Shown: positions 6,288-16,781 of the stretch, in pieces
Position numbering within the stretch: the first letter of the stretch is position 1
Layout of the letters: each line of letters starts with the position of its first letter
Assembly: GCA_963847705.1 (NCBI GenBank)
Contig: CAWKBC010000027.1
Location: 704,001-768,000 of the forward strand
DNA: 64,000 bases
Reading direction: 5' to 3'
Source: an uncultured Pseudomonadota bacterium
Lineage (GTDB): Bacteria > Myxococcota_A > Polyangia > Fen-1088
Program-made: the position numbers and the translations under genes
Notes under the pieces: model-generated
Told to the model about the DNA's origin: nothing
Seen by the model: only the letters and a program-made list of their open reading frames with translations
Databases searched by the model: none

Positions 6288-6388
6288 GGTCGTGACACGG
6301 TAGCAGAGGCCGGCCTCAGGCTCGAATTCTTCGCTGCCGCCCGGAACGTTTTGAGGATTTGAGTGACTGTTGTATCCACAGAAGGCGG

Positions 6389-7717
6389 ATGCCCCCAGTC
6401 GACCAAACCAACACGGAGACCGAGGAGTCTCCGTCCGGCAACTCTCCGCAAAAGCACGCGGTTCTGCTGATCTCGGCGTTCGGCGCGCGACGCGAGATCC
6501 GCTTGCCGCTGGAGGGCGCGGTGACCATCGGCCGTGGGCCGGCGACCTCGGGTTCGGCGTCCTTCGAGGATCGGCTGCTGTCGCGTGAGCACCTGCGGAT
6601 CACCCGCAAGGCTCGCGGATACGAGATCGAAGACCTGGGGAGCCGGAACGGGACGTTCCTGGACGGCCCGAGGCTCGAGCGGCCGACCCGTCTGTCGGAT
6701 GGGGCCCTGGTCCTGTTCGGACATCATGTCGGCGTCTTCCGGTGGGCCTCCGATGCCGAGCTGGCGGCCCTGCAGCAGGACGCCGCCGCCCCGTTCGGAC
6801 CTCTGCCGACGTTCTCACCCGCGCTGGCGCTGACCTACGCGCGGCTTCGCAAGCTGGCCCGCACCGACGCGGAGCTCTTGCTGGTTGGCGAGACCGGCGT
6901 GGGCAAGAAGGTCTGCGCGCGCGCCCTTCACCGGGCCTCCGGACGCAAGGGGCGGTTCGTGGCCATCAACTGCGCTGCGTTGCCAGCCGCGCTGGTGGAG
7001 AGGGAGCTGTTCGGCGCCTCGGCGGGCGCCGAGGCGACAGCCAAGGGCGCCAGCGTCGGGCTCGTCGAGGCAGCGGAAGGGGGGACGCTGCTGCTGGACG
7101 AGATCGGCGAATTGGTGCCCGCGCTCCAGGCGAAGGTCTTCCGCTTCCTGCAGGATCGCACCTACAGCCCGCTCGGCTCGACCAGACGTCGCCGGGCCGA
7201 CGTCCGGGTGATCGCCTCGACCGCGCGCCAGGGGATCGGCCTGGGAGCCGGCGCGATGCACGGCGACCTGGTCGCGCGGCTGGGGGCCGATCCGATCGCC
7301 ATTTCACCGCTGCGGAAACGGGCGGAGGAGATCCTCTCCCTGGTGGCGCACTTCGGCGAGGGGACCCTTCGCGAGATCGAGCCTGCCGCGGTCCGGGCGT
7401 TGTGCCTCTACGGTTGGCCCCTCAACGTCCGGGAGCTGGAAAAGACCGTGGCCAACGCGCTCGCCCTGACCGTCGGCGTCCGCCTCCGCCTCGACCACCT
7501 GCCGGCCGTCATCCGGGGCGCCCTGCAGCGAGGCGCCCCCATCGAAGCCCACCGCCGCGACCCGCGCCCCGCTCCCAACAGCGCCGAGCTGGAGCAGCTC
7601 TTGAAGCAACATGACGGCAACGTCGCCAGCGTGGCGCGAGCACTCGACCGGAAATGGAACGTGGTCTGGCGGTGGGTCGTGAAGTACAAGCTGCGGCCGG
7701 AGACCTTCCGTGACTGA
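6389..7717 (+). CDS. FHA-domain sigma54-dependent enhancer-binding protein (degenerate GAFTGA loop)
   Basis: FHA motifs IGRG, SREH, GSRNGT; Walker A GETGVGK; AINCAAL; Walker B LLLDEIGE; WPLNVREL; C-terminal Fis-type HTH. The L1 loop reads GAEATA. Confidence 0.88.
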   Translation: MPPVDQTNTETEESPSGNSPQKHAVLLISAFGARREIRLPLEGAVTIGRGPATSGSASFEDRLLSREHLRITRKARGYEIEDLGSRNGTFLDGPRLERPTRLSDGALVLFGHHVGVFRWASDAELAALQQDAAAPFGPLPTFSPALALTYARLRKLARTDAELLLVGETGVGKKVCARALHRASGRKGRFVAINCAALPAALVERELFGASAGAEATAKGASVGLVEAAEGGTLLLDEIGELVPALQAKVFRFLQDRTYSPLGSTRRRRADVRVIASTARQGIGLGAGAMHGDLVARLGADPIAISPLRKRAEEILSLVAHFGEGTLREIEPAAVRALCLYGWPLNVRELEKTVANALALTVGVRLRLDHLPAVIRGALQRGAPIEAHRRDPRPAPNSAELEQLLKQHDGNVASVARALDRKWNVVWRWVVKYKLRPETFRD

Positions 7718-10217
7718 GGATGGGAACGATCCGAGGTCGCCTCTCAGTGGAACCGACCTCGAACGACCGTTGCCGACCCCGGGGTCGCCGGCCGTCCCGT
7801 TGCGATCGGGAACGGTCCTGGCTGGTCGATACGAGATCGGCAAGACGATCGGACAGGGAGGCATGGGGGTGGTGGTCCAGGCCTTCGACAGGACACTGGG
7901 CGTCGAGATCGCCATCAAGATCGTCCGCGCGCAGTACGCCGGCGAGCGAGAGTGGAGCGAAAGGCTGGCCCGCGAAGTGAAGCTGGCGCGGCAGATCCAG
8001 CACCCGAACGTCTGCCGCGTCTTCGATTACGCGCAGGCGGACGGCAGGGCCTTCTTGAGCATGGAGCTGGCCGTCGGCGGCACGCTTCGTGACGAGCTTC
8101 GAGCCGACACGACCGCGGCGCGGCCGCTGGCGGCGCGAATCGCCGACGCGCGCGCGCTCGCCGCCGGTCTCGAGGCCATTCATGCGGCCGGGATCGTTCA
8201 CCGCGACATCTCCCCGCAGAACGCGTTGCGGATGAGCGACGGGCGTCTGGTGCTGTCCGACTTCGGCCTGGCCACCGATTCATTCGACGGCACGACCAGC
8301 ATCCGCGGCGGCACCGTGGCGTACATGGCGCCCGAGGTGGCCCGCGGCGGTCGGGCCAGCTTCGCGGCGGATATCTGGGCGCTGGGGGCCGTCATCCACG
8401 AGGCGGTCTTCGGGCAGCGCCTGCAGTGGGATCCGGAGAGCGGAGAGCTGCGCAGCGCGGTCACCAGCCGGCGGTTGACCCGGACGGAGCGCAGCGTCCT
8501 CGAGATCTGCCGCGCCTGCCTGGCGCCGAATCCGGCCCGCCGGCCGCGCGGCGCGGGCGAGGTCGCGGCGCAGCTGACCGAGCAGGGGCTGGCGCGGTCA
8601 GCCGGCCGCTGGCGGCGCCGGCGGGCCGCAACGCTCGCGACCGCCGCGATGTTCGCGGCCGCTGTCATCGTCGCCGAACAGCGGCTCAAGAGCGCGCGTC
8701 AGAGCGCAGCCCAGGTGGTTTCGGCCTCGGTCGATCCGCTCATGATCGTCCCCACCGGCGAGCCGGACGACTGGACCGACGAGTCGAGGGTCCTGGCCGA
8801 GGTGTCCGATCGGATTCGCTGCCTGGTGCCGCTTCCCGACCACCACACCGTCCGGTTCGTGTGGGGCTACCCCGCGCGCGCCGAGGACGTCGATACCCGC
8901 ACGGGGAGAGGCACCCCCTCGCCGCTGGTCCCCAACGCCTACGCCGAGGGATGCCCCGATCTGTCCCCCGACGGCAAACGCCTGGTCTACGCAGGCCATA
9001 CCCCTGACGATCGGGCCTACGCCTTCGTCTCGACGCATGCTGACGGCCGCGACGCGGTCCCGGTGGTGCCGACGGCCGAACCGTCCATGAATTCAGATCC
9101 CGTCTGGCTGAGCAGCGTGGACAGCTTCGTGTACGACGCCGACGCCAACCACGTGGGCGTGTTTTCGCTGGATGCGAAACGGAGCATGGTTCTTCCGACG
9201 ACCAAAGAGCCGTTCTTCTCGGCCTTTCACGGGGTTGTTGGCGATACGATGCTCATCGGCTGGTTGTTGCAAACCGGAGCCGTGGACTTCGATGGGTTTT
9301 CGTATCCGCGATTGGATGAAACGCTCCACTTTCGTTTGCCGCAAATGGTCTTTGATTTGACCCCCGCCGAGGGATCGACCTACTACGGTGCGATCTCCGG
9401 CCAGAGCGGCTTCACGATCGTGCGGATCGAACCGCAGAAGCGTCAGGCGCGCCTCGTCGGGAAGGTCGACCGTCAAGGCGTTCGGTACCCGCTGCTCGTC
9501 GAGGGGGGATTGGTGTTCGTCAGCGTGAGCAGGACCGCGTCGATGGTCTTGCGCACGGGAGCTGGGACGAGGCGCCTTCCTCTGCCGGCCGACGTCCGGG
9601 CGCCGTCCCTTTGTGGAGATCGACTCGTCGCCAAGAGGGTCGTCAATCTCGCGGCAGGCATCGTCTGGCTGGATATGGAGGGCAAGGAGATCGGTCGCGT
9701 CGCGGGCGACGAGAGAACAATGAACCCCAAGTGTTCGGGTGATGGACGGTTGCTCTTCTATGCGGTGTTCGGAGAGGGGCTGAAGCGGTGCCGAGGAACC
9801 GATTGCGAAATGATATTCCGGGGCGATCTCAATGGGTTTGTCCTGTCGCCTGACGACAGCCGGATCGCCTTCGAGTCGTCTGACAGCGGAGGGCATGCTG
9901 TGCGTTGGATTTACGCCGACGGGCGCGCAGGGGTTCATGAGCTGATCGAAACCGACACGCAGTGTCCGCTCCACTGGTCAAATACGAAGGACGTCTGGGT
10001 CGCCTTGCGCAAAGGCCGGAGGGTGACCTGGACGGAGTTCGATACGAACACCAGCCGACCGACCGGCAGGACCTTCCCTGGTACGCGGGACTGTACGGAC
10101 GGGGAAGAAGATCCGGCGTCGCCGGTCAAGGAAGCCGTGGAAGAGCAAGACATCTACCGGGCCCAGCTCCGCTTCCTTCCCGAGAAACACCTACCGGGCC
10201 GAGAGCGATCCCGATAA
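7710..10217 (+). CDS. Membrane Hanks-type Ser/Thr protein kinase with extracytoplasmic TolB/PD40-like beta-propeller
   Basis: Kinase motifs IGQGGMG, IAIK, HRDISPQN, DFG and YMAPE. A hydrophobic segment (ATLATAAMFAAAVIVA) follows an Arg cluster. SPDG-type repeats are present (LSPDGKRL, CSGDGRL, LSPDDSRI). The start overlaps the upstream stop. Confidence 0.9.
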   Translation: MTEDGNDPRSPLSGTDLERPLPTPGSPAVPLRSGTVLAGRYEIGKTIGQGGMGVVVQAFDRTLGVEIAIKIVRAQYAGEREWSERLAREVKLARQIQHPNVCRVFDYAQADGRAFLSMELAVGGTLRDELRADTTAARPLAARIADARALAAGLEAIHAAGIVHRDISPQNALRMSDGRLVLSDFGLATDSFDGTTSIRGGTVAYMAPEVARGGRASFAADIWALGAVIHEAVFGQRLQWDPESGELRSAVTSRRLTRTERSVLEICRACLAPNPARRPRGAGEVAAQLTEQGLARSAGRWRRRRAATLATAAMFAAAVIVAEQRLKSARQSAAQVVSASVDPLMIVPTGEPDDWTDESRVLAEVSDRIRCLVPLPDHHTVRFVWGYPARAEDVDTRTGRGTPSPLVPNAYAEGCPDLSPDGKRLVYAGHTPDDRAYAFVSTHADGRDAVPVVPTAEPSMNSDPVWLSSVDSFVYDADANHVGVFSLDAKRSMVLPTTKEPFFSAFHGVVGDTMLIGWLLQTGAVDFDGFSYPRLDETLHFRLPQMVFDLTPAEGSTYYGAISGQSGFTIVRIEPQKRQARLVGKVDRQGVRYPLLVEGGLVFVSVSRTASMVLRTGAGTRRLPLPADVRAPSLCGDRLVAKRVVNLAAGIVWLDMEGKEIGRVAGDERTMNPKCSGDGRLLFYAVFGEGLKRCRGTDCEMIFRGDLNGFVLSPDDSRIAFESSDSGGHAVRWIYADGRAGVHELIETDTQCPLHWSNTKDVWVALRKGRRVTWTEFDTNTSRPTGRTFPGTRDCTDGEEDPASPVKEAVEEQDIYRAQLRFLPEKHLPGRERSR

Positions 10218-10233: not shown

Positions 10234-12750
10234 ATGAGCGGCTCGGGGTCAGGCTCGAAGGACAGCATCACCGAGGTCGCCGAGGAGTCCTTCGTCCGAG
10301 AGCGGCCGCCCGACATCGAGCGGGGGACGGTGCTGGCGGGCCGATACCAGATCGAGGACATCATCGGGAAGGGGGGGAGCGGGATCGTCCTGCGCGTGTT
10401 CGATCGGACGGCGCAGAATGTCGTGGCGCTGAAGGTCCTCAAGACCGAGCTCGCGCGCGACGCCAAGTGGGAGAAGCGATTTTCGCGCGAGCTGCGGCTG
10501 GGCCGGCCGATCCAGCACCCGAATGTCTGTCGTATCTTCGACATCGGAGAGGCCGACGGCCACCGCTTCCTGACGATGGAGATCGCGCAGGGTGGCTCGC
10601 TCCGCGATGAGCTGAAGCGCGGCGGCGCGCCGGAGCGATCCCTGGAAGCAAAGATGGCCGACGCGAGGGGCGTGATCGCCGGCCTGGCCGCTCTGCACGC
10701 CGCGGGCATCGTTCACCGCGACTTCAAGCCCGACAACCTCCTCCGGATGGGAGACGGCCGCCTGGTGCTGTCCGACTTCGGTCTCGCGACCGATGCAGCG
10801 ACCGCGCCCGGCGCGACGGTGTTGATCGGAACTCCGCACTACATGGCTCCGGAGGTCCTCGCGGGCGAGCCCGCGACGAGCCGCTCGGACGTCTGGGCGC
10901 TCGCGGTGGTCCTTCACGAGATCTTCTTCGGCCAGCGACCCGAGCGCCGGTCCGTGAGCTTCGACGGCTCCTCGAGAGGGCCGATTCGACCCAACTCGTC
11001 GACGGAGCGCAGAGTGATGGCCCTGTGCGAACAATGCCTCACAGAGTCGCCTTTGAATCGGCCCGCTGATGCTCGAGAGGTGGCGCGCCTGTTCGATTCC
11101 GAGCGACGTTCGCCCCCCAAGGGTGGGACGGCGGGCAAAAGGGCGGTGCTGGCCGTCTCTGGTCTGGCGGCAGCGGCGGTGCTTTCGATCGCCGTCCGTG
11201 CCTGGAGACCTCATCGGCGAGAGGTGTCGGCCGCACCGACTTCGGCGACGGCCACCGCCCTGCCCACCTCGGCGATAAGATTGGAACCCGGAGGTGACCC
11301 GGTCGATTGGAGCCGGTCGACGCGCGTCATTGGTGAAATCCCGGGGCGGGTGCATTGCTTTTCCGTGATTGACGAGAAGACGGTCAGAATCGTCTGGGGT
11401 TCTCCTCGAAGAGCGGAGGACGTGGAGGTGGAGTCTGGCAGGCGCCGAGTTGCCCGGTTGGCGCCGGAGACCTTCCGTGTCGGCTGTCCCGAGCTGTCGC
11501 CAAATCGAAAGGCGCTGCTCTTTACCGCCCAGACACAGGCGGGCGCTTCGGAGATTCGTCTTTCGATGTCAGACGGGCGAGAGGCGACGTCGGTGACCTC
11601 GGGCGCGGATCCGCTGTGGCTCGGCGGGAACGATGAATTCCTCTACAGCGTCGACCCGGCTCACGCCGCCGTGTTCTCGCTGCCGACCATGAGCTTTGCC
11701 CTGCTCGCCGGGTCGAAGCTCGGGCAACGGCAGGTGATCCTGGACAAAGCGGTGAGCCAGACTGGGAAGGCAGTCGCGTTGTTGGTGATGGCCGACAACT
11801 CGGAGCTCGGGCTCGCCGTTTATGATCAGCCGCCGTTCGAGCAGGCAAAGGTCTTTTCGATTCCTGAGCAGTATCCGATTCAATTTGAACCGCGAAACGA
11901 AGCGATTGTCTTCGCTTACGGCGCCGGTCAATCGGGCTCTGCCTTGATGGAGCTCGATTGGCGTCACGAGACGCTGCGGAGCATCGCCAGGTATCCGGGC
12001 TTCGAGTTGACGCGCGCCGCGCTTTCGGTCGACCAGGCCGCGACCAAGCTTCTGGTGGCGCGCCATTCGTCGAGCGACGTGTGGCTCTACGACGGAACGA
12101 AGAGAAAGAGGCTCACCAATGACGGCGCGGACTATTCCGCGGACCTGTCGCCCTCCGGCGAGCTCCTGGTGAGCAGGCTGGGCTCCGAGGGGTCATTTTC
12201 CATCTGGCGAATAGACGCCGATGGAACCGAGACAAAGCTGACCTCCGGACCGCGCGACGTCGGGCCGGCGTTTTCCCCCGACGGACGGCTCTGGACCTAT
12301 TCCGACTACTCGACCAGGAGCGTCATGCTTTGTTCGAGGACCTCGGGAGAGTGCCACGTCTTGCACCAGGACGAGCTCCTTCCCATCTGGCCGCGGATCT
12401 CTCCTGATGGAACCCGCGTTGCGTACGTGAGTGGGATGGGCTCACCCAAGGTCACGATCATTTCTGCGGCAGACGGGCGGATGCGCAACGCCTGGGACGG
12501 CCAGTATCAATGCGCGCCAATCTGGTCGACAGCGACGACGATCTGGTTTCTCGAGGCCGGCGCCGGGCGTTACTACTGGTCGGAACGCAATGTCGTCTCG
12601 GGTGAGAAGACGGGAAAGCGGGTGGAGGTGTTGACGGAGAACATGGCCCTTGGCGAGATCCAGTGCGGTTCGACGTCGCCCGACTCTCCGGTCTTTCAGC
12701 CCGTGCGCATCGAGAAGGAAGAGATCTCGAAGCTCCTCGTGTCGAGGTAG
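10234..12750 (+). CDS. Second, paralogous membrane Ser/Thr protein kinase with TolB/PD40-like beta-propeller
   Basis: Kinase motifs IGKGGSG, VALK, HRDFKPDN, DFG and GTPHYMAPE. TM segment AVLAVSGLAAAAVLSIAV. Repeats LSPSGE, FSPDGR and ISPDGTRVAY. Confidence 0.92.
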   Translation: MSGSGSGSKDSITEVAEESFVRERPPDIERGTVLAGRYQIEDIIGKGGSGIVLRVFDRTAQNVVALKVLKTELARDAKWEKRFSRELRLGRPIQHPNVCRIFDIGEADGHRFLTMEIAQGGSLRDELKRGGAPERSLEAKMADARGVIAGLAALHAAGIVHRDFKPDNLLRMGDGRLVLSDFGLATDAATAPGATVLIGTPHYMAPEVLAGEPATSRSDVWALAVVLHEIFFGQRPERRSVSFDGSSRGPIRPNSSTERRVMALCEQCLTESPLNRPADAREVARLFDSERRSPPKGGTAGKRAVLAVSGLAAAAVLSIAVRAWRPHRREVSAAPTSATATALPTSAIRLEPGGDPVDWSRSTRVIGEIPGRVHCFSVIDEKTVRIVWGSPRRAEDVEVESGRRRVARLAPETFRVGCPELSPNRKALLFTAQTQAGASEIRLSMSDGREATSVTSGADPLWLGGNDEFLYSVDPAHAAVFSLPTMSFALLAGSKLGQRQVILDKAVSQTGKAVALLVMADNSELGLAVYDQPPFEQAKVFSIPEQYPIQFEPRNEAIVFAYGAGQSGSALMELDWRHETLRSIARYPGFELTRAALSVDQAATKLLVARHSSSDVWLYDGTKRKRLTNDGADYSADLSPSGELLVSRLGSEGSFSIWRIDADGTETKLTSGPRDVGPAFSPDGRLWTYSDYSTRSVMLCSRTSGECHVLHQDELLPIWPRISPDGTRVAYVSGMGSPKVTIISAADGRMRNAWDGQYQCAPIWSTATTIWFLEAGAGRYYWSERNVVSGEKTGKRVEVLTENMALGEIQCGSTSPDSPVFQPVRIEKEEISKLLVSR

Positions 12751-12754
12751 ATGC

Positions 12755-12779
12755 CCGCCCGACGCTTCAAGTCGGGCGG
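12755..12779. terminator. GC-rich hairpin between convergent kinase-2 and peptide genes (candidate bidirectional terminator)
   Basis: CCGCCCGAC-gcttcaa-GTCGGGCGG forms a perfect 9-bp stem. There is no long U tract. Confidence 0.55.
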
Positions 12780-12802
12780 ACATCGCGTCTGAGAGGCGCT
12801 GT

Positions 12803-12946
12803 TCAGCAGGGCAGTCCGGGACGGCAAAGCCCCTGCGGCGCCACCGGCAACGGCACCCTCCGGGTCGGGTGAGCCGACACCGTACCCGTGGCAGCAATGG
12901 TGGCGGACGCGGCGAATAACGCGACGAGCATGATCTTCTTCAGCAT
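12803..12946 (-). CDS. Small secreted peptide precursor, 47 aa (MLKKIMLVALFAASATIAATGTVSA|HPTRRVPLPVAPQGLCRPGLPC)
   Basis: SD AAGGAG lies 5 nt before ATG 12946. The Sec signal has a KK n-region, a hydrophobic h-region and a V-S-A cleavage site. A sigma54 promoter lies upstream and a hairpin downstream. Confidence 0.8.
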   Translation of the reverse strand: MLKKIMLVALFAASATIAATGTVSAHPTRRVPLPVAPQGLCRPGLPC

Positions 12947-13023
12947 GGCGTCTCCTTGTGGTCTGGTGCTTGCGGAGTCGGAAAACCGCGTCAGAGATCG
13001 ACGCGGCCTTTCGGACTTCCATG

Positions 13024-13040
13024 AGCAACCGACGGACCAA
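13024..13040 (-). promoter_or_regulatory. Sigma54 (-24/-12) promoter of the peptide gene
   Basis: The minus strand reads TTGGTCCGTCGGTTGCT, which is GG-N10-GC with TGG and TTGC matching the consensus TGGCAC-N5-TTGC. It lies ~80 nt upstream of the ATG. Confidence 0.7.
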
Positions 13041-13135
13041 TACGGAGAGCCCAAAACTCCGGGCTTTGCCGGGGAAAAACGGACGTTTTCGGGGCGCGGT
13101 TTTATATCCGTTTACGCAAGCGGAGTTACGTTTTA

Positions 13136-14536
13136 ATGTTCGGCGGATCTGCTGTGATCACGCCCAACGAAAGCACCACCTTCGTTCCGCGCCACGAGGC
13201 GTCAGACGACCCCGTGAAGGTTCCTCTGTTGTTGGTTGTGGGGGACAACCGAGGGAATGTTCCGCTGGGGGCTGACAGAGTTGTCACGTTCACCGGGTCA
13301 CTGGTCGTCGGCCGCCGCGAGCCAACGCAGGGGGAGCCGGGGCAGTCGTCCCTGGTCCTGCCGGACCGGATGATCTCGTCGCAGCACATGGCGATCACCC
13401 CTGCGCCGGACGACGGGGTCTACGAGCTCACCGACCTGTCGAGCACCAACGGCACGATCGTCGACGGAGAGCCGGTCGAGACGACCGTCCGCTTGCGGGA
13501 CGGCTCGGTCATCTTCGTGGGGAGCCACGTGCTCGTGTTTCGGGTCACGACGGTCGCTCAGCGGACGGCGATCGAAGCCGAGCTCGCGAATCCCCTGGGA
13601 CCCGTGGCCACGGCCAACCCGGCCTTTGCCATGGTCTGTCAGAAGCTGCGCAAGCTGGCGGCGGCGGGCGAGGAGCTGCTGCTGACAGGCGAGACCGGCG
13701 TCGGCAAGGAGGTCTATGCCGAGGCGGTCCACCGGGCCAGCGGTCGGACGGGACGGTTCGTGGCCATCAACTGCGCCGCCATCCCCCGCGAGCTGGTGGA
13801 GACCGAGCTCTTCGGTTACGCGCGGGGCGCGCACTCGCAGGCGGCGATGGCCAAGGGCGGGATCATCGAGGAGGCGGAGAACGGGACGCTGTTCCTCGAC
13901 GAGATCGGCGAGATGGCGCCCGAGCTTCAGACCAAGCTGCTTCGCTTCACCCAGGACCGAATGTTGTCGCCGGTCGGCGGGCTGCGCGCGCGGAGGATCG
14001 AGACGCGCATCGTCGCCGCCACCAGCCGCACCGCCGCGCCGTCACAGTCGGGAAGCCTGGGGCTGCGCGTCGATCTGGCGGCGCGGCTCGGCGCCGAGCC
14101 GATCCGGATCCCGCCGCTGCGCGAGCGGGTCGAGGATCTGGGCGCGCTGGCCAGCTATCTTCTGGGCGCGCGGAAGAAGCCGATCGAGCTGACCGCGTTC
14201 CAGGCGCTCTGTCTTTACTCCTGGCCGGGCAACGTCCGCGAGCTCGGCAAGGTCGTGACCTCGGCCGAGGCGCTGGCGCGCGACAGCGATCGGATCGCCA
14301 CCGAGCATCTGCCAGGGACGATCTCGGCGGCGCCGCGGCTGAAGGGCTCGGCGGGGGGGCGCCGAAAATCGCGTCCGCCCCCGGACGCAGCCGAGCTGGA
14401 GGCGTTGATCCGCCGATTTCAGGGCAACATGATGCGCGTCTCGCGCGAGCTCGACCGCAAGCCGGCGCTGGTCTACCGCTGGGCCAAGCGGTTCGGCCTG
14501 AAAGCGGACGACTTTCGCGCTAAAAAAGAGGCCTGA
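13136..14536 (+). CDS. Second FHA-domain sigma54-dependent enhancer-binding protein
   Basis: FHA motifs VGRR, SSQH, SSTNGT; GETGVGKE; AINCAAIP; ELFGYARGAHSQA; LFLDEIGEM; WPGNVREL; HTH. It is divergent from the peptide gene. Confidence 0.9.
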   Translation: MFGGSAVITPNESTTFVPRHEASDDPVKVPLLLVVGDNRGNVPLGADRVVTFTGSLVVGRREPTQGEPGQSSLVLPDRMISSQHMAITPAPDDGVYELTDLSSTNGTIVDGEPVETTVRLRDGSVIFVGSHVLVFRVTTVAQRTAIEAELANPLGPVATANPAFAMVCQKLRKLAAAGEELLLTGETGVGKEVYAEAVHRASGRTGRFVAINCAAIPRELVETELFGYARGAHSQAAMAKGGIIEEAENGTLFLDEIGEMAPELQTKLLRFTQDRMLSPVGGLRARRIETRIVAATSRTAAPSQSGSLGLRVDLAARLGAEPIRIPPLRERVEDLGALASYLLGARKKPIELTAFQALCLYSWPGNVRELGKVVTSAEALARDSDRIATEHLPGTISAAPRLKGSAGGRRKSRPPPDAAELEALIRRFQGNMMRVSRELDRKPALVYRWAKRFGLKADDFRAKKEA

Positions 14537-15722: not shown

Positions 15723-16781
15723 ATGGCGCGCGAACCGGACGACGATGGCGAAGGCGAGGGGGGCGATCCCCGGGTCGAAGCGGCCTGGCAGGCGCTCGAG
15801 AGCGGCGACGTCGCGGAGGCGCGGCGGCTGGCCGAGGCGCTCGACGCGAAGTCGCCGGAGACGTTGCTGTTGCTCGGCGCCTGCTGCCGCGAAGAGGAGG
15901 ACGACGCCCAGGCGATCGCGATCCTGAAACGGGCCGCCGCGGCCGATCCCGAGTGGGCGACGCCGGAGCTCTGGCTCGGTGAGATCCTGGCCGGCGATCC
16001 GGAGGCGACGGCGGAGGCGCTCCGGCATGCCACGCGCGCGCTCGATCTGACGGACGACGAGACGGAGTTCCTGTCGGCGGTCGCGCTCAAGGCCGGTCTC
16101 GAGACCGAGATGGGCGAGACCGAGGAGGCGAAGCGGACCCTGGCGGAGCTGCCGCCGCCCGAGGTCCGGCTGGAGGATCTGGACCTGGCGCTGGAGATCG
16201 CGGACCTGCAGCTGGCGCTGGGCGATCCCGAGGCGGCGCGCGAACGCCTGCTCCTTTTGTGCGAGGCGAGCCCGACGATGGCGGACGCCTGGTACGCGCT
16301 TGGCTGCGCGGCCGAGCAGCTGGAGGACGAGACCGAGATGCGGGCCGCCTGGAAGCGCACCTGGGCGCTCGATGCCGCGCCGACCGGTGGCGATGTCGCG
16401 GCGGGGGAGGCCGAGCGGCTGCCCGAGGCGGAGGTCGCGGCGGTCGCCGAATCGGCGCTGGAGGAGCTCCCCGAGCGGGCGCGCGCGCTTCTGCAGGGGA
16501 TCCCCATCGTCATCGCCGAGCTGCCGGCCGAGGCCGACGTGGCCACCGGGCTCGATCCGCGGGTGCTGGGTCTGTTCAGCGGGACGGCGCACGGCGATGG
16601 CGCCACCGGGCTGGGCGGTCAGCCCGGGCTCACTCAGATCGTGCTCTTCCGGCGGAACCTCGAGCGGGCGGCCCGCGACGAGGATGAGCTTCGCGAGGAG
16701 ATCCGGACCACCTTGCTGCACGAGACCGGACATTTTTTCGGTCTCGACGACGCGGCGCTGGAGGAGATCGGGCTCGGGTAA
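15723..16781 (+). CDS. TPR-repeat protein with C-terminal Zincin_1 metallopeptidase domain
   Basis: Ala/Leu-rich TPR-like helices, then LGLFSG...IVLFRRNL...LLHETGHFFGL (HExxH). Confidence 0.85.
   Translation: MAREPDDDGEGEGGDPRVEAAWQALESGDVAEARRLAEALDAKSPETLLLLGACCREEEDDAQAIAILKRAAAADPEWATPELWLGEILAGDPEATAEALRHATRALDLTDDETEFLSAVALKAGLETEMGETEEAKRTLAELPPPEVRLEDLDLALEIADLQLALGDPEAARERLLLLCEASPTMADAWYALGCAAEQLEDETEMRAAWKRTWALDAAPTGGDVAAGEAERLPEAEVAAVAESALEELPERARALLQGIPIVIAELPAEADVATGLDPRVLGLFSGTAHGDGATGLGGQPGLTQIVLFRRNLERAARDEDELREEIRTTLLHETGHFFGLDDAALEEIGLG

Follow-up and report, generated by a model that had tools for sequence, protein, structure and literature searches.

A hypervariable, predicted secreted cysteine peptide and its neighboring receptor kinase in uncultured myxobacteria: likely parts of a hormone-like self-recognition system

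Gene Content of the Locus

The window analyzed here is a 64,000-nt stretch of DNA from the genome of an uncultured myxobacterium (G000). Within it, a short minus-strand gene for a peptide precursor is flanked upstream by a divergent gene for an activator-like protein (EBP2) and downstream by a convergent gene for a membrane kinase (kin2), with a second, paralogous activator and kinase (EBP1 and kin1) ahead of it. In window coordinates, the features are:

6359–7717, plus strand: EBP1, a second FHA-AAA+ protein with a degenerate loop 1, GAEATA (Pfam; loop alignment)
7710–10217, plus strand: kin1, an orphan paralogous receptor kinase without an adjacent peptide, its ectodomain varying independently of that of kin2
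10234–12750, plus strand: kin2, a membrane Ser/Thr kinase (Pkinase domain, residues 38–278; TM segment, about 305–323; ectodomain, about 346–838; Pfam Pkinase and PD40)
11050–12870, no strand: approximate exchanged cassette of peptide spacer, Cys loop, kinase TM region and ectodomain (DNA identity profile)
11269–12747, plus strand: kin2 ectodomain, hypervariable, a predicted tandem beta-propeller with conserved Cys (AlphaFold)
12750–12784, no strand: 14-bp GC-rich hairpin between the convergent stops (z −5; not conserved)
12803–12946, minus strand: peptide precursor gene, 47 aa
12806–12838, minus strand: conserved core, P-x-G-hydrophobic plus Cys41-x5-Cys47, its loop hypervariable in relatives (alignments, motif counts)
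12872–12946, minus strand: predicted Sec/SPI signal peptide, residues 1–25, ending V-S-A
12952–12957, minus strand: Shine-Dalgarno sequence AAGGAG
12986–13006, minus strand: core of a 5′ UTR hairpin that extends to about 12975–13020 (z −2.2 here; structure conserved, sequence variable)
13024–13040, minus strand: sigma-54-type −24/−12 element, GG-N10-GC (predicted transcription start, about 13013)
13098–13139, no strand: conserved upstream block, candidate enhancer and/or activator-gene promoter (genus consensus of 38 loci)
13154–14536, plus strand: EBP2, an FHA plus AAA+ protein resembling sigma-54 activators (Pfam FHA and Sigma54_activat; conserved start GTG at 13154)

The Peptide Gene

The initial annotation had picked out a 47-aa ORF nested within an 83-aa TTG ORF, and it is indeed present at 12803–12946 on the minus strand. 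On comparative evidence we regard it as a genuine gene. Profile searches combined with inspection of DNA from family genomes gave orthologues in 47 of the 89 genomes of its own family (class Polyangia), spanning nine of 19 genera; a single-sequence search matched 13/25 same-genus genomes at E<1e-3, and HMMER against 1.84 billion representatives returned 105 matches, 104 of which (clusters at 50% identity) were family members. Pooled over 34 same-genus sequences, pN/pS was 0.53 and, by part of the gene, 0.28 in PQGLC and 0.75 in the loop. The reading frame closes with TGA in 38 loci, TAG in 17 and TAA in six, with one cut off by a contig end. Half of the loci (31 of 62) have an in-frame stop fewer than 36 codons upstream and cannot encode the 83-aa form, which is thus no conserved feature; the protein collection contains the exact 47-aa protein and not the longer one. 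The expectation that gene callers would probably miss the gene was therefore mistaken: the protein had already been called, as had 97 of the 104 database representatives from their MLKK start, and an identical relative is annotated as “hypothetical protein, Polyangia bacterium.”

The peptide matches no family in Pfam or NCBIfam; searching NCBIfam with 38 members gave nothing beyond three unrelated single matches at E>0.01, and the ESM Atlas returned only unnamed matches at about 0.8 and no family. No paralogues were found by tblastn of its own genome, and among 44 candidates from a scan of that genome for small secreted Cys-containing ORFs, the sole convincing one with a sigma-54 motif was the 47-aa gene itself. 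The peptide profile matched none of 329 class genomes outside the family. Left out of our counts were a false match (L082), three non-syntenic sequences (L015, L016, L018), one unrelated sequence (P0095), the duplicates L203, L214, L217, L209 and L210, the truncated L222 and the frameshifted genes of genomes G001 and G019. These frameshifted genes (L060 and L080, respectively) come from few-contig assemblies in which kinases and neighbors are frameshifted too, and they are probably sequencing errors. A second, orphan peptide gene (L239:4407–4571, G080:C4) lies on a 7.5-kb contig without a kinase or activator match, and its core very nearly matches the one in G062, which belongs to a different genus.

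The Predicted Secreted Peptide and Its Core

The 25-aa Sec signal proposed in the initial annotation agrees with sequence rules in all 62 locus peptides: each carries one or two K/R among its first six residues and an [AVSTG]-x-A site, D/E are absent from residues 1–22, and none has a lipobox Cys. Here the N-terminus is basic, the h-region hydrophobic (maximum 12-residue Kyte-Doolittle value, 2.23) and the V-S-A/H junction falls at residues 23–26; by such simple rules the n-, h- and c-regions and A-x-A site of a Sec/SPI signal are in place, with neither lipobox nor twin Arg. AlphaFold predicts a helix at residues 2–24, followed by coil (pLDDT 66).

Across the family, the signal peptide, the P-x-G-hydrophobic motif and two Cys are kept, while the RR, the five-residue loop and the 3′ hairpin vary. 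The proposed C-terminal C-x5-C loop therefore stands as to its Cys pair, which is conserved in syntenic loci (its loss there had been named as grounds for rejection), and falls as to its spacing: the loop is two to eight residues long in relatives, with 149 distinct loop sequences. In this peptide the C-x5-C runs to the stop codon, and the last Cys is the terminal residue in 54 of 62 loci. Trimming after the RR, also suggested earlier, finds no backing in the relatives, as the RR is private to this allele among the 62 locus peptides and occurs in two of the 104 database representatives.

Eight of the 104 precursors carry two tandem cores, the repeat consisting of spacer, P-x-G-hydrophobic and Cys loop, which suggests that a small repeated unit is released. 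The residue after Gly is hydrophobic both in G-x-C cores (126/128) and in G-x-x-C cores (16/16), so that its position is set by the Gly rather than by the Cys; Pro stands two residues before Gly in 131 of 152 cores, and Gly is absent from 14 of 166. Proteases of the matrix-metalloprotease type cleave after P-x-x and before a hydrophobic residue, a pattern that P-x-G-hydrophobic appears to match; a cut at that point would leave a ring peptide of eight residues, with a mass of 855 Da in this allele. It is just as conceivable that the motif serves as an invariant anchor for the receptor. The gene neighborhood showed no gene for an exporter, an importer or a secreted protease. A protein with TPR and Zincin_1 domains (15723–16781) lies between the arginase-family gene and rpsT and is syntenic in most genera; since no signal peptide is visible in it, it is unlikely to be the processing protease. 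At the same position in genera g10 and g40 lie peptides with an MLKK signal, two, four or six Cys and no P-x-G motif (L087:3467–3646, L089:4908–5027, L090:7619–7801), which may be unlike knots for the same receptor family.

Expression Signals

The Shine-Dalgarno sequence AAGGAG reported earlier was confirmed at 12957–12952, 5 nt ahead of the ATG, and orthologues likewise have a purine-rich one. The initial annotation had joined promoter, ribosome-binding site and a 9-bp downstream hairpin into a complete transcription unit. Of these the ribosome-binding site holds; the promoter is sigma-54-like, a promoter scan at the locus having found no sigma-70 promoter; and the hairpin has to be given up as a conserved terminator, since it is in fact 14 bp long and without a U-tract, and z values below −2 were reached in 15 of the 57 3′ flanks. 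A terminator scan did not list it (12784–12750). In nine of 39 loci (L045, L049, L058, L061–L063 and others), the stop codon of the peptide gene overlaps that of the kinase gene, and there is no space for a terminator; transcripts there would run antisense into each other.

Of 64 loci, 61 have a TGG-N9-TGC motif in the 170 nt before the gene, vs. 5.5% of random windows; in the remaining three, GG-N10-GC was seen by eye, and rpoN is present in the genome. The 5′ UTR hairpin has a median z of −2.2 over 55 loci and falls below −2 in 32 of them. A DNA pattern of the upstream block, blind to peptide and receptor, recovered 23 metagenome loci, 21 with a peptide start and two unrelated. Matrices of this block yielded no convincing second target in G000; the one notable second site overlaps the stop codon of a leuA-like gene, has no sigma-54 motif and was rejected.

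The Kinases and Activators

kin2 has the features of a Hanks-type receptor kinase (VAIK Lys, HRDxKxxN, DFG, single TM segment, ectodomain), and its catalytic K, HRD, K, N and DFG are invariant in 34/34 full-length orthologues. A TM scan gives one TM segment, weak in a few orthologues. The 493-residue ectodomain was modeled as almost all-beta, with a pLDDT of 91. About 240 of its residues, or roughly half of the model, can be superposed on single propellers (best Z 18.0, rmsd 3.2, 9% identity); a Foldseek search with the whole model returned tandem-propeller proteins at TM≤0.34 and generic propellers only. We read the model as a double beta-propeller without a close solved relative, a fold that by itself shows no function.

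The orphan kin1 ectodomains are 39–81% identical to that of G000 and vary as fast as those of kin2, with no adjacent peptide; hypervariability therefore needs no linked ligand. Such kin1-type receptors are often in tandem, with no peptide of this family adjoining them in the stretches examined (7710–10217 in the window; L054, L064 and L225–L238). A reading of kin1 as a pseudokinase (HRDxSP) was dropped because S or T occupies that position in 24 of 66 G000 kinases.

EBP2 scores 158 bits against PF00158, and its Walker A and B motifs, Arg fingers and sensor II are invariant or nearly so (47–51 sequences). In place of the canonical GAFTGA, loop 1 reads GAHSQA in 49, GAHSEA in two and GSHSQA in one of 52 sequences, while GAFTGA itself occupies 21 of the 34 activator loops identified in G000. 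GAFTGA mutants are mostly unable to activate transcription (PMC7175178). The near-invariance of GAHSQA suggests a function; activation of the peptide promoter by EBP2 is the weakest link of the model set out below. His also occurs in loop 1 of a paralogue whose other AAA+ motifs are intact (G000:C30:34434–35825, GAHSTA).

Conservation of the Module and Exchange of a Cassette

The peptide lies upstream of EBP2 in 46/46 assessable genomes out of 49 with an EBP2 orthologue (threshold E≤1e-145; the other three stop at a contig edge). Of the 47 peptide loci, 45 have kin2 on the downstream side, and two run into a contig edge. Two genera, g7 (0/13) and g39 (0/11), have neither peptide, EBP2 orthologue nor ectodomain, save for one weak activator paralogue match in g39. 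The ectodomain profile matched none of 400 phylum genomes at E≤1e-15, in a sample that listed no other family member; an EBP2 query of genome contigs was swamped by generic AAA+ matches and uninformative. In most genera the chromosomal position is fixed beside the arginase-family and rpsT genes, and the tail-to-tail position of peptide and kinase is kept even in g10 and g40. As far as gene order and sequence reveal, peptide, EBP2 and kin2 make up a single conserved module of three genes, in which a sigma-54-like element precedes the peptide.

Within this module, part of the DNA changes as a unit. Against L210, L202 and G021, identity is 83–92% over activator and promoter, drops to about 40–68% over most of the cassette and returns to 76–90% in most kinase-domain bins; against L204 and L206, the cassette itself is mostly 71–90% identical. 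The boundaries fall right after the signal peptide and right after the kinase domain. Within the genus (12 genomes), EBP2 averages 80% identity, the kinase domain 75% and the ectodomain 41%; for G000 vs. G021 the figures are 94%, 87% and 50%, while five secreted-looking window proteins stand at 75–84% (ORFs picked automatically, some of them on the wrong strand). Among the 46 pairs with EBP identity of at least 92%, ectodomain identity is bimodal: 35–54% in 31 pairs, 30 of which differ in the length from Cys to the end, and 71–96% in 15, all of equal length, although these pairs are related by kinship and thus not independent.

Among 27 same-genus loci, variation in the loop follows the ectodomain (partial rho 0.49, 0/2000 permutations) rather than EBP (−0.17), and that in the signal peptide follows EBP (partial rho 0.55), so that the two halves of the peptide gene would appear to have different histories, the signal peptide with EBP2 and the loop with the ectodomain. 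Across genera the partial correlation of loop and ectodomain is 0.11 and not significant (131/2000 permutations). The ectodomain tree shares 13 of 31 splits with the EBP tree and the kinase-domain tree 22 of 31; the EBP tree does not fit the kinase-domain data either (p-AU 1e-5), though the delta logL is 51 vs. 387 for the ectodomain. G021, L212 and L220 group beside G000 by EBP2 and not by ectodomain, and G075, which has a 3-residue loop, groups by ectodomain with G069 and G070, which have 3-residue loops and belong to another genus. There are counter-examples: L219 and G017 have the identical loop CWPSGMPC in different ectodomain clades, and G016 and L219 are in one ectodomain clade with different loops. 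Further, peptide and ectodomain are adjacent, and linkage alone would therefore yield co-inheritance, whether or not they bind. By these comparisons, loop and ectodomain change as one DNA block among close relatives, giving many types. The candidate secreted two-Cys signaling peptide of the initial annotation is supported by its conservation, by its invariant kinase and activator context and by its co-variation with the kinase ectodomain; the surrounding system of sigma-54-like promoter, FHA activator, receptor-like kinase and swapped cassette was no part of that annotation.

Discussion

The peptide is swapped together with the outer sensor of its kinase among close relatives and is therefore likely to be the signal of a hormone-like self-recognition system, undescribed to date, in these uncultured myxobacteria. 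We consider that it probably acts as a strain-typed ligand of kin2, feeding the FHA activator and its own promoter in a quorum- or kin-sensing circuit. The precursor is predicted to be exported by Sec and its signal cleaved between A25 and H26; the two Cys would form a disulfide ring in the periplasm, and a protease would cut at or near the bond between the Gly and the hydrophobic residue of P-x-G-hydrophobic, releasing a cyclic peptide of 8–11 residues (855–1138 Da here). Judging from the co-variation, the ring would bind the double propeller of a kin2 of the same type and cause Thr autophosphorylation; by domain logic, the FHA domain of EBP2 would read the phosphothreonine and EBP2 would regulate the peptide promoter, most likely in positive feedback. 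Speculatively, orphan kin1-type receptors may listen for foreign types. Counted against this ligand circuit are the GAHSQA in place of GAFTGA, the orphan kinases that diversify without a peptide, the linkage, the counter-examples, the weak cross-genus correlation, the rejection of the EBP tree by the kinase domain too and the lack of a convincing second target of the upstream block in G000, as well as the diderm host, in which both peptide and ectodomain would be periplasmic, and the missing exporter, importer and secreted protease genes at the locus.

In a different reading, the peptide stays in the cell that makes it as a periplasmic modulator of its own kinase, either a feedback repressor or a probe of envelope or redox state. 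It would account for synteny and co-variation equally well; the Cys pair would suit a redox probe, the locus holds no transporter, and the uncut 22-mer (2.36 kDa) exceeds the usual porin limit, which lies below that mass. There is also a precedent in zraP, where a small exported periplasmic product is driven by a sigma-54 promoter divergent from the activator (PMC4987338). Yet ZraP is a folded, zinc-binding chaperone and repressor that works with a histidine kinase, and it offers no Cys-loop peptide, allele swapping or homology; the folded chaperone domain and histidine kinase partner of the ZraP/CpxP/Spy type are not found here, the 22-aa mature region being predicted as coil and matching no family. 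Nor does such a modulator predict the 149 loop variants, the bimodal swap among 93–95%-identical relatives, the two-core precursors, the orphan receptors or the orphan peptide copy in G080. We therefore hold it to be unlikely, though worth keeping in mind.

Diversification might instead reflect an arms race, with the product a small antimicrobial or competitor-jamming peptide and the kinase a sensor or immunity-like partner. In 58 of 62 loci the peptide carries a positive net charge (+1 to +4); it is hypervariable and presumably closed by a disulfide, and a single locus is swapped as a block; but the core has just 8–11 residues, rich in Pro and Gly, and among the identified neighbors we found none of the marks of RiPPs, microcins or bacteriocins (modifying enzyme, dedicated exporter, immunity gene, double-Gly leader), nor did the peptide match a bacteriocin or RiPP family. 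With the chromosomal position fixed in most genera and a catalytically intact kinase beside an FHA activator fitting signaling better, we regard this as very improbable. It is also quite improbable, in our view, that the peptide is simply an output of the activator whose loop is carried along in the recombined block while the ectodomain diversifies for some other ligand (prey, phage or cell surface). The adjacency of peptide and ectodomain, the near-neutral pN/pS of the loop, the diversification of orphan ectodomains and the pairs L219/G017 and G016/L219 all speak for such hitch-hiking, whereas ring size shifts in step with ectodomain type around an unchanging Cys pair and P-x-G-hydrophobic motif, and the tail-to-tail position is retained in g10 and g40 despite two to six Cys and the absent motif.

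Among known systems, agr (AgrD/AIP, AgrC, AgrA) resembles the proposed ligand circuit in its small cyclic peptide of similar size, in its autoinduction logic and in having a variable peptide and sensor block unlinked from the conserved regulator. The variable region of agrBDC shows linkage within itself but none with agrA (PMC8768832). Here the block is tail-to-tail with conserved flanks, and peptide and sensor region co-vary apart from the regulator, with the caveat of linkage and the counter-examples. The parts are not shared: agr uses AgrB and a thiolactone, a histidine kinase, a LytTR regulator and four groups, whereas here we find a predicted Sec signal and a putative disulfide ring, a Hanks kinase with a double propeller (Pkinase/PD40), an FHA-AAA+ protein (FHA/Sigma54_activat) with a sigma-54-like promoter, about 150 loop variants and a diderm host. 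An AgrB gene and an acidic-tailed thiolactone precursor are absent from the locus, where the neighbors are the kinase and the activator, and the peptide has no AgrD-type match in Pfam or NCBIfam.

In Myxococcus xanthus, FHA-type activators are coupled to Ser/Thr kinases, and Jelsbak et al. reportedly described FHA-domain sigma-54 enhancer-binding proteins there in 2005. These share the FHA plus AAA+ architecture, but we found no peptide ligand or typed cassette for them in the literature searched, and the GAHSQA loop belongs to the proteins studied here. On the receptor side, PknD and the PASTA kinases PrkC and PknB are likewise kinase-TM-ectodomain receptors, PknD with a propeller sensor. The ligand of PASTA kinases is peptidoglycan or muropeptide, and the six-bladed propeller of PknD is described without a ligand, in the portion of the review available (PMC6213207). 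Here, kin2 has two propellers in the model and a gene-encoded candidate ligand, no PASTA match and scores far below the NCBIfam cut-offs. In the fold comparison, NHL domains score within 2 Z of WD40 domains.

In plants, SCR-SRK self-incompatibility likewise pairs a Cys peptide that is secreted with a receptor kinase of the Ser/Thr type, the two being passed on together as a single polymorphic locus; this is analogy only, as ectodomain and output differ and no sequence relation is expected. Within the phylum, density sensing and polymorphic self-recognition also bring to mind the A-signal and TraA, but the former is a mixture of amino acids and peptides and the latter a homophilic surface receptor (PMC12288465), and neither is a dedicated peptide-kinase pair. 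No description of a system of peptide, kin2 and EBP2 was found in the literature searched (at abstract level, with few subscription papers).

The full pathway, as we picture it, would be one of peptide hormone and receptor Ser/Thr kinase: a released ring peptide, a matched double-propeller Hanks kinase, phosphothreonine, FHA and a GAHSQA activator, with more than 100 types swapped as tail-to-tail cassettes and orphan kinases eavesdropping. We see the evidence for and against this whole as evenly balanced. To our knowledge, bacterial peptide signaling relies either on histidine kinases or on RRNPP receptors in the cytoplasm, and is found mostly in Gram-positives; if true, the pathway would stand beside these as a third class, organized in the manner of plant peptide-receptor-kinase self-recognition. 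The architecture is new in kind on condition that the ligand-receptor relationship holds; if the peptide is an in-cell modulator, it is a variation on a known theme. Peptidoglycan is the only receptor ligand named in the available part of a review of Hanks kinases (PMC6213207). The locus offers a concrete, synthesizable candidate ligand of 8–22 residues with a defined receptor, together with a natural panel of matched and mismatched pairs that makes it testable without culturing the host. Confirmation would establish eukaryote-like signaling logic in bacteria and a new myxobacterial kin or density code, supply a large set of orthogonal peptide-receptor pairs and either prove a GAHSQA activator workable or reveal another mode of regulation.

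Additional Observations

Three further loci were noted in passing. An 85-aa secreted-looking ORF with an MLKR start and C-x6-C (L231:2633–2890, G061:C613), for which Pfam gave no match, lies about 1.3 kb from an orphan propeller kinase. In G000, a divergent kinase and FHA-activator pair (C14:149515–153582) has a kinase domain 47% identical to that of kin2 and an activator seemingly split over two frames. The same genome encodes a 297-aa secreted-looking protein (C27:203156–204049) with about twelve tandem NGLSA pentapeptide repeats.
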